A DNA stretch of 44,927 nucleotides from a phage, in the sequence record PZ871095.1; one strand, written 5' to 3'. The notes below the pieces were generated by a model. It saw only the letters and a program-made list of their open reading frames with translations, ran no database searches and was not told where the DNA came from. This document shows positions 30,382 through 37,157 of this stretch, in pieces; the first letter of the stretch is position 1, and each line of letters begins with the position of its first letter. The translations under genes were made by a program, and so were the position numbers.

Positions 30382-32673
30382 TTACTTCCTGTACCTGTAC
30401 ATAATGTCGCCTTCTGCGGCGAGTGGGAAGCCTTTCGCCCAAACTGGCAGGTCGCACATCAGCGCGCATAGCTCCTCGGTCGTGTAGTCGTCAGTATCCG
30501 GCACTTCTGTGATCAATTCGTCGTGTACTGACAGGACGATTTCATAGCCCGCGGCTTCAACGCCGGGCATGGACCATGCGAGAATATCGCGACACAACGC
30601 CTGTACGATGTTCTCCGTAAGTTTGCCGCCGTAGGTATACTGGAATCCCCACTGGCGCGTCGTCTGATTCTCGCCCTGATATTTAATGTGTGTGCTGGTG
30701 CGCTTCTTGCCGGTGTCTTCATCAATCTCGGTAGTGACAGACAGCGCGATGCCGGGGTAGCTCATGATGCGCCCCGACGGCAACTCAATTTTCAACCACC
30801 ACCCCGCGGCGTCCGGGTCGTCGCGCTCCTCGTCGAAGGTTGGGTCGTGCTTCGCCTTCGTGCGCACAATCTTGAGCGCTTTTCTACCGTCCGGGCGAAC
30901 GTTCGCGCCAGCCCAGTATGCTTTACCCGGATTGCGGATTGCACACAACACCGCGTCCTCAAGCTCGGCCCAAAAGGCTACCGTCTTCGGGTGAGCCTCA
31001 CGCCACATGCGTTTGATCGCGTCACAGGTAAGCCATACGTTTTTCGGCAGTATGTATGTTGGGCGCTCGTCCTTCTTGCCCGGCTTCGGCGGGCGCTTCG
31101 CTTCGTTAATGCGAGCGTACTCATAACCACGTTTCGCCGCCGCCCAAATGTGGTCCGGGAACGTGCCTTTCATCACGTCCGCCATAGTGTAAAGGTCGAG
31201 TCCCAGGTTTTTAGCGAACTGCAAGAACGCCGCGACGCCGCCACCATAGCCCAGTCCCAATTCGCACGCCTTACCAATCTGGCGTAAGTCCTTGCGGTTG
31301 GCTTTAATGTAATCCGGGTCAAGGCCGAACATCTTACCGGCAGTCTCACAATAGATATCGCGACCGGCCTTAAACACCATTAGCGCGGTTTTCTCGCCAG
31401 CAATCCAGGCAAGGCCGCGCCCTTCCACGTTGGAGTAGTCCGCTACGACAAACTTCTTGCCCTTCGCCGGAATAATGCACCCGCGAACGGTCGAGGCCGT
31501 TAGCTTCGATATGTCATACGCCCAGTGTGCGGTCCCGCGTAACAGGGAGTTGATGCCGTTGGTGAGCATGTGCGACCGGACCCAAAACGAGACGTCGCTT
31601 TCACCCTCGCGGCGTTTAATCTTCCCTTCGTGGTCGTCGCTGTACTCGCCACGCGCCAGGTTTTGAGGTTGAAAGCCTTTACCGGCCCAGCGTAGCGTGC
31701 GCTTTGCCCCACCATACTGAAGACAACCACGGCGGCGACCATCGGCAGACAGGCCATTGACGAGCGGATTGTATTTAGTAGATGCGGTTGATGACGCACC
31801 GAGGCGCATTTCGATCAGCGCTTTGCCCTCGTCCGGGAAGTCCGGGTCTTCCAGTAGGTCGTTTAGCGTGGATTTCTGCGCGTTGTGGATTGTGAACGCC
31901 GGGGCGATATCACGCAGGATTGGCAGGAAGTCATTGCCTGTCAGTTTACCGCCAAATCGCTCCCAGGCTTCCTCCTTCAATTCTTCCTTATGCGCCTGCA
32001 CCGCTTTGATCGCGGCGTTCGCCAGGTCAACGTCCACATAGAAGCCGCGGTCGTTGATCAACTGGTCGATAAGCAGGATTTCATCTTCCTTCGGAGTATT
32101 ACCCCAGTCCGGTATGCGCCAGTAGACCTCACGCATCGCGATAATATCCAGCGCGGCATATCGCAGAAATTTGGCCCATTCTTCAGGGTGAGTCTCGCGA
32201 GTGTAGCGGCGGATTTTGTAAGTCTTAGGGGTCGGCTTACAGAATCGTTTGATCAGCGCCTTGCCTGCCTTATCCTTCGCGTGCTCTGCGTCAACGCCCA
32301 GCACCTGGCACTGCATATCGAGGCTACCGGGCAGCGCGTGGCGAAAGGCCATAATCATGGTGTCTTCGATCTGGCTTACCGGCAGGTCAATACCCCACTT
32401 CTCGCGAATAACCAGGCGGTCAAACAGTAGGCCGTTAGCCATCACGATTTTTGCTTTCTTGCGGGATACATGGCGGAGCGCTTTGCGCAGTTCACGCGGC
32501 ATTGTGGGGGATTCAGTGCAATCCCATGTCTGCACGCGGCCCTCGTCGATGGCGTATGTGCAAATCATAATCTCGGTGGTTGGGTGCTCTGCGTAGGCGT
32601 ACGCCCCTACTTTCTTCAGGTCCACCCCGCTAAATGTCTCGGTATCGAGAAACAGGCGTTCGAAGTCTTTCAT
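30382..32673 (-). CDS. DNA polymerase I-like (family A) with N-terminal 3'-5' exonuclease region
   Basis: 763 aa; exonuclease-like N-terminus (LFLDTETFSG), motif A-like ADYSNVEGR and motif C SVHDELITEV characteristic of family A polymerases. Confidence 0.9.
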   Translation of the reverse strand: MKDFERLFLDTETFSGVDLKKVGAYAYAEHPTTEIMICTYAIDEGRVQTWDCTESPTMPRELRKALRHVSRKKAKIVMANGLLFDRLVIREKWGIDLPVSQIEDTMIMAFRHALPGSLDMQCQVLGVDAEHAKDKAGKALIKRFCKPTPKTYKIRRYTRETHPEEWAKFLRYAALDIIAMREVYWRIPDWGNTPKEDEILLIDQLINDRGFYVDVDLANAAIKAVQAHKEELKEEAWERFGGKLTGNDFLPILRDIAPAFTIHNAQKSTLNDLLEDPDFPDEGKALIEMRLGASSTASTKYNPLVNGLSADGRRRGCLQYGGAKRTLRWAGKGFQPQNLARGEYSDDHEGKIKRREGESDVSFWVRSHMLTNGINSLLRGTAHWAYDISKLTASTVRGCIIPAKGKKFVVADYSNVEGRGLAWIAGEKTALMVFKAGRDIYCETAGKMFGLDPDYIKANRKDLRQIGKACELGLGYGGGVAAFLQFAKNLGLDLYTMADVMKGTFPDHIWAAAKRGYEYARINEAKRPPKPGKKDERPTYILPKNVWLTCDAIKRMWREAHPKTVAFWAELEDAVLCAIRNPGKAYWAGANVRPDGRKALKIVRTKAKHDPTFDEERDDPDAAGWWLKIELPSGRIMSYPGIALSVTTEIDEDTGKKRTSTHIKYQGENQTTRQWGFQYTYGGKLTENIVQALCRDILAWSMPGVEAAGYEIVLSVHDELITEVPDTDDYTTEELCALMCDLPVWAKGFPLAAEGDIMYRYRK

Positions 32674-32840
32674 TGCTTTATCCTCACTACGGCGTCAGCG
32701 CTGCCGATCATGGAGAAGATGCCGTCGGTCAGGGCAATCTCTTCGCCATTGTTGCGAATCTCGGCAACTGTGAAATATTCCCCCAGTAGCTTGGACCATA
32801 CTTGCATTCCGACTTTTACTTCGCTGGCTTTAATACGCAT
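32670..32840 (-). CDS. small hypothetical protein
   Basis: 56-aa ORF (MRIKASEVKVGMQVW...) whose TGA overlaps the polymerase ATG (ATGA); not in the supplied track because it is under 60 aa. Confidence 0.4.
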   Translation of the reverse strand: MRIKASEVKVGMQVWSKLLGEYFTVAEIRNNGEEIALTDGIFSMIGSADAVVRIKQ

Positions 32841-32898: not shown

Positions 32899-33683
32899 TT
32901 AACGGCGGCGACGTTTACGTGGTGCTTCGTCTTCGTCGTCTTCGTCCTCATCTTCGTCATCGCGGGACTTGCGGCGTTTGCGAGGTTTTTCATCTTCCTC
33001 ATCATCGTCGTCATCGCGGCGCTTGGACTTTTTGGACTTGCGCGGCTTGTCATCTTCATCATCGTCATCACGACGTTTTGACTTCTTAGCCTTGCGCGGT
33101 GCTTCGTCTTCGTCGTCGTTGTCCAGGTCTTCATCGGAGCAAGAAGACCCGCCACCGCCGAAGGCTTCACCGTCATCACGGAAGCGTAAACCCAGCAAGC
33201 CAGCACCGAGTCCCTTGCCGTTGGTGTTGTTCCACGCCCAAATATCAAGTGACACGTTGCAATAACAACCGGAGTAGATCTCCTGGCCTTCAATCTCGTC
33301 GCCGTCGATGGTCAGACCTTGTTCAGTCTGCTTCTCGCCGAGTGACGTTTGAATGATTGGCTGTTTGAACGATTTAGCGTTGATGTACAACATGCCTTCG
33401 AATTCTTCGGTTACTTCGTCGCGCTCGTCACCGTCGCGAACTGCGCATTCCTTAGAATCCTGGGCGTAGTGGCGGTCCATCCACTTATCGGCATTCTTCT
33501 CGGATTTCAGCTTATCGGTGAGCACTGCGCGCGCTGCCGCTTCCACTTTGTCCACCTGCGGATCTTCTTTATCCAGAAGAATCACGGCACGGTATGCCGG
33601 TTTTTGTCCATCCTGTTTAGGGGTATCACGTTCCCAAATTTTCAGGAAGCATACGCGCACATTTTTCAGGTTGACTTTAGCCA
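32899..33683 (-). CDS. SSB-like protein (DUF2815 family) with repetitive charged C-terminal tail
   Basis: N-terminus MAKVNLKNVRV typical of DUF2815; start placed at ATG 33683 after GAGGA; C-terminus carries three repeats of an acidic run followed by PRK(A/S)KKSKRR. Confidence 0.7.
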
Positions 33684-33995
33684 TTTTCCAATTCCTCATT
33701 TTCACATGTATCGGGGTTATTGTGAGCCACCCCGTCCGGCTTGGTTGCTAATCTACTTGGTTGCGCCTGAGCGGTCAAGCATTTTCATTAAAAAGATTTC
33801 TGGTAACGTAGTCGGTAGCGTTCTCGATCCAGCTTAATGGCGGGCGGTCGATATTCTTCGCCACCCAATCGGCGGCAGCTTCGCTATAACCGTCATCCAG
33901 CCAGCGGGTCGGATGCCGAATCATCCACGCCATGCACACAATGCAGGATAAAGCCCAGCGCGCCGATAACAAACATCAATAATATTGCGAATACT

Positions 33996-35426
33996 TTATT
34001 CATTGCTTAAGTCCTCGTCAGTAGCTACAGACCACGCAGGGCGCGGGTCATCGATGGGTGCTAATACCGGTTTAGCTGGTGCGCGCGTGATTTTATCACA
34101 CAATTTCGCCCACACTTTCGGCTTCTCGTCCTTCAATACCTTCTCGGCGTCGGTAGGACTGAGTAATGTTTCTTTGTACATAACATCGCGCTTGATCCGG
34201 GCCTTCGTGAAGATTTCAATCACTTCGCTTTCGTCCGCCCACTTGCGGATCCCTTCCTTACCGGCAACCATTTTGAGGCCCAGAGATTCGCCATCACCCG
34301 CCATTACGGCCTTGAATACTGCGGACTCGATAGCCTTGATGTGCTGGCGCATTGCGTCCAGACCTTCATATGCCTTGCGCAGTTCTGCTGCGGTCATAGC
34401 GCCGGGGGCCGCTTCTTTCTTACCACGCTTCGCACGTCGTGCCGCTTTCCGGGCTTCGCGGGCCATATTGCGGTCATGATTGGCGCATTCTTCCTCTGTC
34501 GCAATACTCACGTCGTCGCCCAGGTCTTCGTCTGTTGCCGTTGGTGGGGTCATCGTGTCGATTGCGGCCTTAGCGCGGGCGCTACACTGATCCGCAAATC
34601 TGCACCACTGACACGCATCAACGCTCGGTCGGAAGTCGGCACGGGTGAGTCCCTTTTTGCCGCGGGCGTACGCTTCCAGGGCGGCGATAGCACGCTTGGA
34701 CGCAAACTTCGCGAATATCTCCAGGGCTTCTACCGAAATATCCCACTCCGACGCCCCGCCGCAATACGGCTGGAAGATAACCAGGCGCACGGTCGTGATG
34801 TCGTACATGGATTGCAGCTTGCGCAGCAGGCCGAGCGCATACAGCATAAGCTGTTTGTTTTCTTTCGCCTCGACCTTATGCCGCCCCGTCTTCAGGTCGC
34901 CAACAATCAGCATGTACGTCCCGTCGGTCTTTTTCATGACCATGACCATATCGGCAGTACCGAACGTTTTAATCCTGTTGCCGTCGATCTCGTAGCCTGA
35001 GTGAAGGACGCGGGTCAGATCGGCGCGCATCTCAAGCTGGACAAACTCCGCCACTTCGAGGAGTGGTCGCCAGTGGTCGATGTACGCGTCGCACTGTTTC
35101 ACCATGTCGTCGTTGACCAGTACGCCGCCTTTCGGTGCTTTCGGGTGCGCCTTTACTGGCCCCTTGCCTTCGTTCTCGACGTAACACCCTTTATACGTCT
35201 TTGCGGATATCAGCTTCTCACCGGCGATAATGCGGTTTAGCACCACCTCAGATACGGTGTGCATACTCGTACCGTTAATCGCGGCTTGCCCGGATTCGTT
35301 CGGGATATCTTTTTCCACCACCAGGGCGGCGGGACACCCCATCCATTTTTTAGCACCGGATGGGCCGAGTAATGAGTGTTCCGTATTGCTACCGGATTGC
35401 GTTTTACGTTTTGGTTTAATCGCCAT
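33996..35426 (-). CDS. PD-(D/E)xK Cas4-like nuclease (DUF2800 family)
   Basis: 476 aa; N-terminal SLLGPSGAKKWMGCPA signature and CQWCRFADQC cysteine cluster typical of DUF2800/Cas4-like phage nucleases; adjacent to the DUF2815 gene. Confidence 0.75.
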   Translation of the reverse strand: MAIKPKRKTQSGSNTEHSLLGPSGAKKWMGCPAALVVEKDIPNESGQAAINGTSMHTVSEVVLNRIIAGEKLISAKTYKGCYVENEGKGPVKAHPKAPKGGVLVNDDMVKQCDAYIDHWRPLLEVAEFVQLEMRADLTRVLHSGYEIDGNRIKTFGTADMVMVMKKTDGTYMLIVGDLKTGRHKVEAKENKQLMLYALGLLRKLQSMYDITTVRLVIFQPYCGGASEWDISVEALEIFAKFASKRAIAALEAYARGKKGLTRADFRPSVDACQWCRFADQCSARAKAAIDTMTPPTATDEDLGDDVSIATEEECANHDRNMAREARKAARRAKRGKKEAAPGAMTAAELRKAYEGLDAMRQHIKAIESAVFKAVMAGDGESLGLKMVAGKEGIRKWADESEVIEIFTKARIKRDVMYKETLLSPTDAEKVLKDEKPKVWAKLCDKITRAPAKPVLAPIDDPRPAWSVATDEDLSNE

Positions 35427-35866: not shown

Positions 35867-35914
35867 TGTCTCGTCCTCTAAAAATAGGCCCGCAGATTAG
35901 CGGGCCGGATAATA

Positions 35915-36427
35915 TTAGTCTTCCAGTTCGAAATAGGTTTCTACAATTTCTTTCAGATCTTTGTGGAAGTCTTCTACGTCGTCATCTTCCAGTTTTGCGA
36001 TTGATTTGATCTCGAACGCTTCCAGCAGGTCGTCAAATTCGTCGTTGGCATCGTCGTCATCACCACCGGCGATAATCGCGGCATACTGTTTGATTTCGTC
36101 GCGCATCTCTGCCAGCGGGTCGGCATCTTTCTTGCCTTTGCCTTTCGCCGGAGCTTTTTTGGTTTTCGCCGGTTTTTCGTCTTCGGCTTCTTCATCGTCG
36201 TCATCTTCTACGACTTCTTTTTTGGCCTTACCTTTAGCCGGTGCTTTTTTGGTTTTCGCCGGTGCTTCGTCTTCAGCGTCGTCATCTTCTACGACTTCTT
36301 TTTTCGCCTTAGATGGCTTTTTATCTTCCTGCTTACCAACGGCAGCGCCAACGGTTTCATAATGCTTAGCGATGGTTTCCAGTGCTACTACGCCGCGTGT
36401 AATCAGGTTTACGATTTGTTCAAACAT
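35915..36427 (-). CDS. acidic repeat-containing early protein
   Basis: 170 aa; first gene after the leftward promoter; about 50 D/E residues, internal imperfect tandem repeat (KKEVVEDDD..EDE.PAKTKKAPAKGK twice), very acidic C-terminus. Confidence 0.6.
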   Translation of the reverse strand: MFEQIVNLITRGVVALETIAKHYETVGAAVGKQEDKKPSKAKKEVVEDDDAEDEAPAKTKKAPAKGKAKKEVVEDDDDEEAEDEKPAKTKKAPAKGKGKKDADPLAEMRDEIKQYAAIIAGGDDDDANDEFDDLLEAFEIKSIAKLEDDDVEDFHKDLKEIVETYFELED

Positions 36428-36625
36428 GTTTTATATCTCCGATTGGTTAAGTTTAGGTGTCGACCATTAACCTCGTCGGTGGCCTTAACATATTGCCAGG
36501 TTACGCGTTCTCCCTTTCGGGTAGTGGACCTGGTTATATAATCACGGTTGGGAATCCTGACACTTCGATCCGGCCCCTGCGTTGCCCCTCTCCAGTTTGC
36601 GTCCTGCATCCTGTCGACGAGGTGC

Positions 36626-36654
36626 ATATTAGATTGGTTGCAGAAGGGAGTCAA
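36626..36654 (-). promoter_or_regulatory. putative leftward early promoter (TTGACT-N17-TAATAT)
   Basis: Minus-strand reading TTGACTcccttctgcaaccaatcTAATAT; near-consensus sigma70 hexamers with 17-nt spacer containing GCAACCAA; heads the leftward gene block. Confidence 0.5.
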
Positions 36655-36663
36655 CAACTAATT

Positions 36664-36698
36664 TAAAAAAAAGCGCCGAAGCAAAATGCGACGGCGCT
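36664..36698 (-). terminator. rho-independent terminator on the minus strand (AGCGCCG stem, T9 run)
   Basis: Minus-strand AGCGCCG-tcgcattttgctt-CGGCGCT followed by TTTTTTTTT, just upstream of the early leftward promoter in the divergent control region. Confidence 0.6.
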
Positions 36699-36827
36699 AA
36701 CCAATAAGAGACAATGAGACGGGGGTATTATTACACGCGTGCGCGCCCGTTTCAATATCCAAAGGATTTGACACCGTGCCGTTTTGGGTGTAGTTTCGTT
36801 GGTCATTAACCAACTGAGGGCAGAGCA

Positions 36828-37157
36828 ATGAATGTAAACGACGCAATCGAAATGTTAACGAAGACTGTTTGCAGTGAGACAAGCCGGTCATGGGCATACA
36901 CCGATGCCGTGGGGGCTGTGTTATTTGAAATCGAACGACTGCGGCTTACCGAAAAAGAATTGCGCGCCAGGCTGGAACTACTCAACGGTACAGCAGCAAG
37001 CAAGCTGCAAAAGCACAATGAAGAAATGGAAGAATACAAAAAGCAGGTTATCCGTTTGCGCGACGAAGGGAAATCATGGGCGATGATTGCCGAGTTGACC
37101 GGAATTAATCAGAGCACAGTGCGCTCCTGGGTACGCAATAATAAAACTTCTAAGTAA
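36828..37157 (+). CDS. putative HTH DNA-binding regulator
   Basis: 109 aa; C-terminal KSWAMIAELTGINQSTVRSWV resembles a helix-turn-helix; first rightward gene of the divergent control region; GAGGG ribosome-binding site. Confidence 0.6.
   Translation: MNVNDAIEMLTKTVCSETSRSWAYTDAVGAVLFEIERLRLTEKELRARLELLNGTAASKLQKHNEEMEEYKKQVIRLRDEGKSWAMIAELTGINQSTVRSWVRNNKTSK

Follow-up and report, generated by a model that had tools for sequence, protein, structure and literature searches.

The replisome of phage T7 is organised by electrostatic contacts of disordered charged tails (PMC5686142). The acidic tails of gp2.5 and gp4 engage basic docking sites on T7 DNA polymerase, and in phage lambda the C-terminal domain of Red-beta and Orf/NinB are three-helix modules that bind an exonuclease and the SSB tail. 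Other small acidic phage proteins have been described as inhibitors of host enzymes, and first-expressed acidic proteins of phages are often host-directed. Ocr (T7 gp0.3) is a compact helical dimer mimicking bent B-DNA, ArdA has a three-domain elongated fold, and anti-restriction genes are usually patchy in their distribution. Lambda Gam and T7 gp5.9 are small acidic early proteins as well, and their genes sit upstream of exonuclease genes in their genomes.

The stretch of phage DNA analysed here, hereafter the window (44,927 nucleotides, sequence record PZ871095.1), encodes a small protein that resembles Ocr and ArdA in being the product of a first early gene with a high Asp/Glu density, and resembles Gam and gp5.9 in being a small acidic early protein encoded upstream of a phage exonuclease. 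An earlier note on this DNA had suggested a DNA mimic that blocks restriction or other host nucleic-acid enzymes, an idea which rested on position and composition only and which, as regards anti-restriction, our analysis leaves unsupported. We find that the acidic protein is a conserved, previously uncharacterised and highly expressed member of a broader family tied to a common replication module.

Genomic context of the acidic gene

Judged from its sequence, the window is a Dhillonvirus, an E. coli siphophage. About 136 full-length matches to the 1.1-kb region around the acidic gene, at 93-96% identity, come from E. coli Dhillonvirus phages, among them vB_Eco_Lzu_P3, PNS1, SECphi4 and GeorgBuechner. 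In this region, 93-96% identity to E. coli Dhillonviruses is also seen in two records titled 'Campylobacter phage A144' and 'Acinetobacter phage NJ01'; their host labels are probably wrong, or the records contaminated. Among isolated phages, 155 records carry the acidic protein, which equals the number with a Dhillonvirus-level SSB and therefore marks it as a Dhillonvirus core gene.

On the minus strand, the acidic ORF is followed by two small ORFs of 83 and 62 aa, which separate it from the DUF2800 / PD-(D/E)XK nuclease gene (33996..35426, minus strand, assigned by profile match and synteny), then by a 65-aa ORF, the SSB gene, a 56-aa ORF between SSB and PolA (32670..32840, minus strand, PHROG 10102) and the family A DNA polymerase gene PolA, the last large gene of the module (30382..32673, minus strand). 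Divergently transcribed are a sigma-region-4-like HTH gene and a gene for a 754-aa primase-helicase. The 109-aa HTH protein (36828..37157, plus strand; sigma-70 region 4 / homeodomain-like) is labelled 'transposase' (PHROG 9366, EE09) or 'DNA recombination nuclease inhibitor gamma' (UDS3lw) in database records. Both labels look wrong, and a transcription regulator is more likely.

The same arrangement, with the primase-helicase gene diverging from the acidic gene and the latter followed by DUF2800, SSB and PolA, was found in 10 of 11 diverged metagenomic or viral loci, the contig of the eleventh ending ahead of the downstream genes. Identities across these eleven loci were 36-43% for the acidic protein, 43% for the primase-helicase and 60-66% for PolA. 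Moreover, the order is present in Jerseyvirus PVP-SE2 (ORF_18), Kagunavirus fFiEco03 (gp48), Hafnia phage TS33 and FSL SP-031, and Kosakonia phage Kc259 has a weak version of it. Local irregularities were seen in some of these loci. At L017 (14128..17247), about 880 nt of inserted sequence, probably encoding a homing endonuclease or an intein, interrupt the PolA match; that at L025 (10985..13179) lies in two overlapping out-of-frame pieces, probably owing to a frameshift or sequencing error; and in PVP-SE2 an HNH gene separates the acidic-family gene from DUF2800, and the helicase carries an intein.

Architecture of the acidic protein

The acidic gene (35915..36427, minus strand, ATG start) encodes 170 aa and belongs to PHROG 3127, with a full-length profile match (E 8.2e-53, residues 1-170 on profile positions 1-178); phrog_18196 is a weak direct match (E 2e-4). 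With 51 Asp and Glu against 29 Lys and Arg, the protein has a net charge of -22 and a pI of 4.46, and nearly all of the net negative charge is held by residues 101-170, in agreement with the earlier description of a strongly net-negative protein with a very acidic C-terminus.

An alignment of 120 homologues and AlphaFold2 models together gave a three-part layout, predicted as a single helix followed by a disordered stretch of about 70 residues and then by a three-helix bundle of 65 aa. The N-terminal amphipathic helix (aa 2-27; 36347..36424, minus strand), delimited by the homologue alignment and the AlphaFold2 model, follows across the acidic family the consensus M-L/F-E-K/Q-..-L-.-.-R-.-V-.-A-.-E-.-I-A. 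Only positions 3, 4, 10, 11 and 17 are polar and the remainder are mostly hydrophobic; most of the non-polar positions are hydrophobic in more than 90% of 42 distinct sequences. Such a pattern would be typical of helices buried inside an oligomer or in the groove of a partner. The linker (aa 28-100; 36128..36346, minus strand) consists of alternating acidic and basic blocks, is predicted to be disordered (pLDDT <50, with gaps in the alignment) and is roughly net-neutral in the window protein. The acidic C-terminal three-helix bundle (aa 101-170; 35918..36127, minus strand) has a domain model with a pLDDT of 85.7 and a net charge of about -21, or about -0.3 per residue.

The best-conserved stretch of the C-terminal domain is D-E-F-D-D-L-L at residues 129-135 (window 35980..36040, minus strand), which resembles the canonical SSB-tail core D-[DE]-F-D-D-[IL] of related phages. 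This likeness could be due to chance in an acidic sequence, or the head could be imitating an SSB tail. An EF-hand-like metal site was considered in GDDDDANDEFDD and rejected on inspection, as the spacing is wrong and the residues look like helix caps and core.

Within the linker lies an imperfect tandem repeat (36126..36299, minus strand), for which Tandem Repeats Finder reported a 90-bp period, 1.9 copies, 80% matches and a score of 236. The earlier note had described an imperfect repeat of about 84 bp; the repeat is there, while its units are really 81 and 90 bp long, and the figure of about 84 bp arose as the mean of the two. At the protein level the units have 27 and 30 aa (KKEVVEDDDAEDEAPAKTKKAPAKGKA / KKEVVEDDDDEEAEDEKPAKTKKAPAKGKG).

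The length of the linker is hypervariable. Homologues of the acidic protein in Dhillonvirus phages have between 115 and 179 aa, the most frequent lengths being near 142 aa (one repeat unit) and near 167 aa (two units), and homologues of 115 and 122 aa have no repeat unit at all, the 122-aa one being encoded on a 44.8-kb contig; repeat copy number in viable phages runs from 0 to about 3. Both ends of the protein, in contrast to the linker, are strongly constrained, and the C-terminal domain is nearly invariant within Dhillonvirus. Since the linker is so variable and some homologues lack a unit, the repeat is best read as a slippage-prone spacer. In addition, the earlier note had given dispensability of the repeat for infection as one half of the outcome that would speak against its proposal, and nature supplies this half: as repeat-less homologues occur in complete phage contigs, the repeat itself is dispensable. 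We also considered that the repeat DNA might serve as replication-origin iterons, as in the lambda O gene, and rejected this on the copy number of 0 to about 3 in viable phages; the protein sequences of diverged homologues, which have no such repeat unit, count against it as well.

Across the acidic family, the C-terminal domain has a net charge of -4 to -21 (mean -13) and is acidic in every member, whereas the linker ranges from -10 to +5 with a fraction of charged residues of 0.43. An exhaustive search of 1.84 billion cluster representatives with a profile HMM of the C-terminal domain retrieved only 40 proteins; the complete members among them mostly have 108-212 aa, nearly all are three-part, and three have a duplicated C-terminal domain.

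Promoter, leader and terminator

Upstream of the acidic gene lies a sigma-70-like promoter, TTGACT-17-TAATAT (36626..36654, minus strand), directly preceded by a T8/A-rich, UP-element-like tract and followed by a leader of about 190 nt. The site matches the consensus at 9/12 positions, so that its earlier designation as a near-consensus early promoter was generous, while a promoter-like site does exist and the acidic gene is, as had been claimed, the first gene behind it, at the head of the leftward replication operon. A consensus scan found no enrichment of such sites in the region (4 found vs 6.4 expected), and the -35 box and the position of this one are kept in the diverged relative L023. 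A Shine-Dalgarno sequence, GGAG (36437..36440, minus strand), was read directly 9 nt before the ATG. Right after the stop codon comes a strong intrinsic terminator (35879..35906, minus strand) with 7 G-C pairs and a T-run at 35906..35887, and a hairpin occupies this position in 12 of 14 diverged relatives, with differing sequences. Bounded by a promoter-like site and a terminator, the acidic gene therefore comes close to being a unit of its own, and probably a highly expressed one; its transcripts probably read through in part into the replication genes. The placement of the terminator directly 3' of the gene fits high, separate expression.

A structured leader RNA or riboswitch in the 5' UTR of about 190 nt was considered and rejected, as the leader has no significant fold (z 0.35) and no match in Rfam. 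The leader region (36409..36657, minus strand) is open in one frame (MQDANWRG...NRRY), and some records (EE09_56, Opt212) fuse this frame to the acidic protein, giving 231-239 aa. We rejected this N-terminally extended ORF: in the window the upstream frame is not in phase with the gene, all diverged homologues start with M-F/L-E, and the leader of L023 is much shorter, so that the extension looks like an annotation artefact.

Further upstream, a strong hairpin with a T8 run, AGCGCCG...CGGCGCT (36665..36698, minus strand; -16.3 kcal/mol, z -3.3), abuts the -35 box of the acidic gene's promoter. About 20 nt beyond it lies a better promoter-like site, TTGAAA-17-TG-AATAAT (10/12; 36727..36755, minus strand). 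The upstream promoter and hairpin could give rise to an RNA about 55 nt long, serve as an insulator for the operon or provide a T-rich UP element. L023 likewise has a hairpin and T13 just before its TTGACG box.

Expression in infected cells

In cells infected with phage EE09, mass spectrometry detected only four phage proteins, including CDS56 and CDS61, and CDS56 was not among the 24 proteins of EE09 cell-free lysates (PMC10673088). The homologue of the acidic protein is EE09_56, whose annotation includes the spurious upstream extension, and EE09_61 is the SSB. As both are among the four proteins detected in infected cells, the acidic protein is made in large amounts together with the SSB, and such abundance of both fits a stoichiometric role. 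The label 'prohead core protein' in the UDS3lw annotation was rejected, since the EE09 homologue is absent from the lysate and virion list and present in infected cells. Our literature search found no essentiality or transcriptome data on these phages.

The SSB and its charged tail

The SSB gene (32899..33684, minus strand) encodes a gp2.5/Enc34-type protein (PF10991 Enc34_ssDNA-bd, E 3e-31; PHROG 112), the OB-fold profile covering residues 10-200. Its start is the ATG at 33684, with a GTG at 33705 as alternative; the earlier note had recognised the gene correctly and placed its end one nucleotide off, at 33683. A promoter-like sequence, TTGACC-17-TAGATT (33750..33778, minus strand), is seen just upstream. 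The published mutations by which SECphi4/6/18 escape Retron-Eco8 lie in the coding sequence of the SSB or in its promoter (bioRxiv 10.1101/2022.08.27.505566).

SSBs of this type characteristically have a short, purely acidic tail with a hydrophobic or aromatic end. The window SSB has none; its C-terminal tail (32902..33150, minus strand, 83 aa) is built of acidic-then-basic units and ends in APRKRRRR. By eye there are about four units, each with an acidic run, then [A/K]-P-R-K and then a basic run, and Tandem Repeats Finder gave a 54-bp period with 2.3 copies (32994..33119). The acidic-then-basic pattern noted earlier is thus present, although three repeats had been counted where we see four.

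A related charged pattern in the linker of the acidic protein and in the SSB tail had also been suggested, and is borne out by local alignment. The score of 122 was reached by 0/1000 shuffles in each of two controls, which gave 64.6+-7.4 for residue shuffles and 81.6+-10 for charge-run shuffles. The two segments share the direction acid, x-Pro, basic: over ten lineages, the orientation from acid through Pro to basic against its reverse was counted 18 vs 2 times in SSB tails and 11 vs 3 times in linkers. At the DNA level the similarity is weak (4/500 codon shuffles reach it), and a recent gene conversion between linker and SSB tail was for this reason rejected. Lineage-specific matching of each linker to its own SSB tail was rejected too; the own tail ranked 1-2 in 6 of 11 usable lineages and 5-10 in the other five.

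Association with basic-block SSB tails

We collected 80 viral loci with this SSB type and scored the acidic protein at E < 1e-3. Long SSB tails with Arg/Lys blocks were present in 26/80 loci, and wherever the locus held enough upstream sequence to be assessed (24 loci), the acidic protein was found 2-3 kb upstream of the SSB (24/24). L088, with a basic-block SSB tail and a different gene order, does not have the acidic protein. The canonical short acidic tail with a hydrophobic end, e.g. DDFDDISEGADASDLV, was found in 53/80 loci, and from these the acidic protein is absent, bar one weak non-acidic relative (L107). Kc259, a distant phage, the SSB of which is 31% identical, repeats the combination of an acidic C-terminal domain with a Lys-rich SSB tail ending KKKAAPKKKAPARK. 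As most of the loci belong to one clade, this co-distribution stands for no more than one or two evolutionary events and is no statistical proof.

In phages with canonical tails, the gene directly upstream of DUF2800 encodes a protein of 108-160 aa in which a linker rich in Ala and Pro joins an N-terminal helix to a C-terminal helical domain, the last 60 aa having a net charge of -4 to +1. These pre-DUF2800 proteins belong to a web of PHROGs without known function (18562, 408, 32389, 18196 and others). The window protein shares their location, being encoded on the same strand upstream of DUF2800 together with a PF10991 SSB and PolA, and the C-terminal domains of acidic and neutral members (A4 vs A7) are homologous (hhalign probability 93.8%, E 1.8e-7, 57 columns). 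A protein such as that of Bordetella phage BMP-1 (L031, 6566-7039) has the position, the three-part layout and the homologous C-terminal domain of the window protein; it differs from it, like its relatives, in being near neutral, in having an Ala/Pro linker and in accompanying a classical SSB tail, whereas in the window protein the head is acidic and the linker charged and repeat-bearing. From the homology of the C-terminal domain it follows that the window protein is an acidified, charge-patterned form of a general module component, and acidification of the pre-DUF2800 protein coincides with the gain of basic blocks by the SSB tail.

A different combination was observed in Marinobacter phage PS6 (L033, 8121..8795). 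There the product of the first operon gene has 224 aa, with an N-terminal helix followed by a linker that is hyper-acidic and a C-terminal helical domain that is basic, and the SSB tail is hyper-acidic. The PS6 protein has no HMM match to the acidic family, and with its SSB it may form an analogous pair with opposite charges.

Possible roles of the acidic protein

Our preferred reading, which we put forward tentatively as possible rather than probable, is that the acidic protein is an abundant adaptor that binds electrostatically the tail of the phage's own SSB; we infer its binding partner, its oligomeric state and any phenotype. The protein would be a non-enzymatic, three-part member of the replication/recombination module, in which the very hydrophobic N-terminal helix may oligomerise it or anchor it to a partner, the disordered linker may act as a spacer of adjustable length, and the tandem repeat would be a slippage-prone part of this spacer and not a functional unit in itself. 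The acidic three-helix head would bind the Arg/Lys blocks of the SSB tail, and this contact may couple SSB-coated DNA to the nuclease or the replisome. For the adaptor speak the core-gene status and the invariant gene order, the constrained ends with a linker of varying length, the homologous neutral C-terminal domains ahead of DUF2800, the co-occurrence with basic-block SSB tails, the acid-Pro-basic motif common to linker and tail, and the joint detection with the SSB in infected cells. Against it stand L088, with its basic-block tail and no acidic protein, the inconsistency of own-tail matching across lineages, the descent of most of the co-distribution from one clade, the lack of profile similarity to the Red-beta C-terminal domain, and the frequent targeting of the host by first-expressed acidic proteins of other phages. 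Perhaps, in a wider scenario which we regard as unlikely although conceivable, the two proteins have co-evolved by charge reversal: the SSB of Dhillonvirus and Guernseyvirinae would have exchanged its canonical acidic tail for Arg/Lys-terminated acid/basic repeats, and the pre-nuclease protein would have turned acidic and acquired a charged linker to match, giving an electrostatic hub, possibly multivalent or condensate-like, for replication and recombination. Going further, the blocky linker and the SSB tail might co-assemble into a condensate scaffold that concentrates SSB, nuclease and polymerase into a replication focus. Both segments are predicted or expected to be disordered and carry alternating blocks of the same polarity, both proteins are abundant, the N-terminal helix would confer multivalency if it is oligomeric, and some homologues duplicate the C-terminal domain; yet natural homologues of 115 and 122 aa have almost no linker and the related proteins of other phages have uncharged Ala/Pro linkers, which makes a scaffold improbable.

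Alternatively, the tethered acidic head could be a decoy directed at the host, mimicking nucleic acid and blocking type I restriction, RecBCD (as Gam and gp5.9 do), or nucleoid proteins such as HU or H-NS. This is rather unlikely in our view, although several observations speak for it. The gene comes first after a promoter-like site and has its own terminator, its product is abundant in infected cells, the charge density of the head is high in the window and the head acidic throughout the family, and the position upstream of an exonuclease gene recalls gam and T7 gene 5.9; moreover, cohesive ends are predicted for the close relative EE09, and the examined regions of related phages contain no gene annotated as a RecBCD inhibitor. 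Homologous non-acidic proteins at the same position in other phages, in turn, cannot be DNA mimics, and core-gene behaviour with strict synteny to the nuclease, SSB and polymerase genes is not what the patchy distribution of anti-restriction genes would lead one to expect. Neither sequence nor fold of the acidic protein matched Ocr, ArdA, Gam, other solved mimics or any Pfam or PDB family, and none of the Pfam profiles, including Ocr (PF08684), scored above threshold for it or for 29 homologues. Structure prediction, which the earlier note had proposed as a check for DNA-mimic charge patterning, yields a largely disordered protein with a three-helix bundle and not a compact DNA-shaped body. 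Furthermore, the BASEL study (PMC8594841) describes Dhillonvirus phages as sensitive to type I and type II restriction-modification compared with Queuovirinae, and at least the two BASEL members that we checked, TheodorHerzl and GeorgBuechner, both carry the acidic gene. These are the grounds on which anti-restriction is unsupported, and inhibition of type I restriction specifically appears very improbable. A further possibility, to which we give little likelihood, is that of a regulatory or otherwise unrelated early protein, modulating for example host RNA polymerase or the divergent HTH/primase operon, its position being historical. The gene is nearly a separate unit between promoter and terminator, the sigma-region-4-like HTH gene is divergently adjacent, and weak, non-significant fold matches include parts of RNA polymerase; the protein has, on the other side, no DNA-binding or RNA polymerase-binding domain, its synteny persists where various HTH proteins take the place of the divergent regulator, and high abundance suits a stoichiometric role better than a regulatory one.

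Two other proteins related to phage defence were compared and set aside. Ksap1, the Avs2 trigger of Dhillonviruses, is a 74-aa protein encoded between methyltransferase and phosphatase genes (PMC11564622), and Anti-Tmn, the product of the accessory gene ORF35 in phage SMS22, has a beta-sheet domain (PMC11846954).

Significance and comparison with known systems

The module of DUF2800, gp2.5-type SSB and PolA is widespread in siphophages, including Dhillonvirus, Jerseyvirus and Kagunavirus. Phages of these three groups are used in therapy and biocontrol, and the SSB and polymerase of the module trigger the defence systems Retron-Eco8 and Borvo, with Hachiman and ShosTA responding more broadly to replication and SSB genes. 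No phage annotation assigns a function to the small protein encoded ahead of the module, which here is nonetheless among the most abundant phage proteins in infected cells. If its pairing with the rewired SSB tail is true, it would be a new accessory component of a common phage replisome, and a natural example of a compensatory charge swap between a disordered tail and its receptor. The case also calls for caution, as composition alone is insufficient to label acidic early proteins as DNA mimics, and it allows database labels such as 'prohead core protein' to be corrected.

Compared with the host-directed proteins, the acidic protein differs from Ocr and ArdA in having no match to either, neither the compact helical dimer of the former (PF08684) nor the profile or elongated three-domain fold of the latter (PF07275), and in being core and syntenic, not patchy, in restriction-sensitive phages. 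From lambda Gam and T7 gp5.9 it differs in that no similarity of sequence or fold was detected and in having neutral homologues. Likeness to the three-helix modules of lambda is one of analogy, not of family membership: there is no homology to the three-helix SSB-tail binders, no profile similarity between the Red-beta C-terminal domain and the acidic C-terminal domain (hhalign probability 0.1%), and the fold match of the latter to the Red-beta domain or Orf is no better than to designed helical bundles. With T7 the window shares the gp2.5 structural type of its SSB. The T7 tail, which is part of the SSB, is purely acidic and has an aromatic end, whereas here the SSB tail consists of alternating blocks ending RKRRRR and the acidic element is a separate protein, with which it would interact. 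The proposed adaptor would then do the job of the acidic SSB tails of T7 and lambda and of the small three-helix SSB-tail binders, with the charges reversed.
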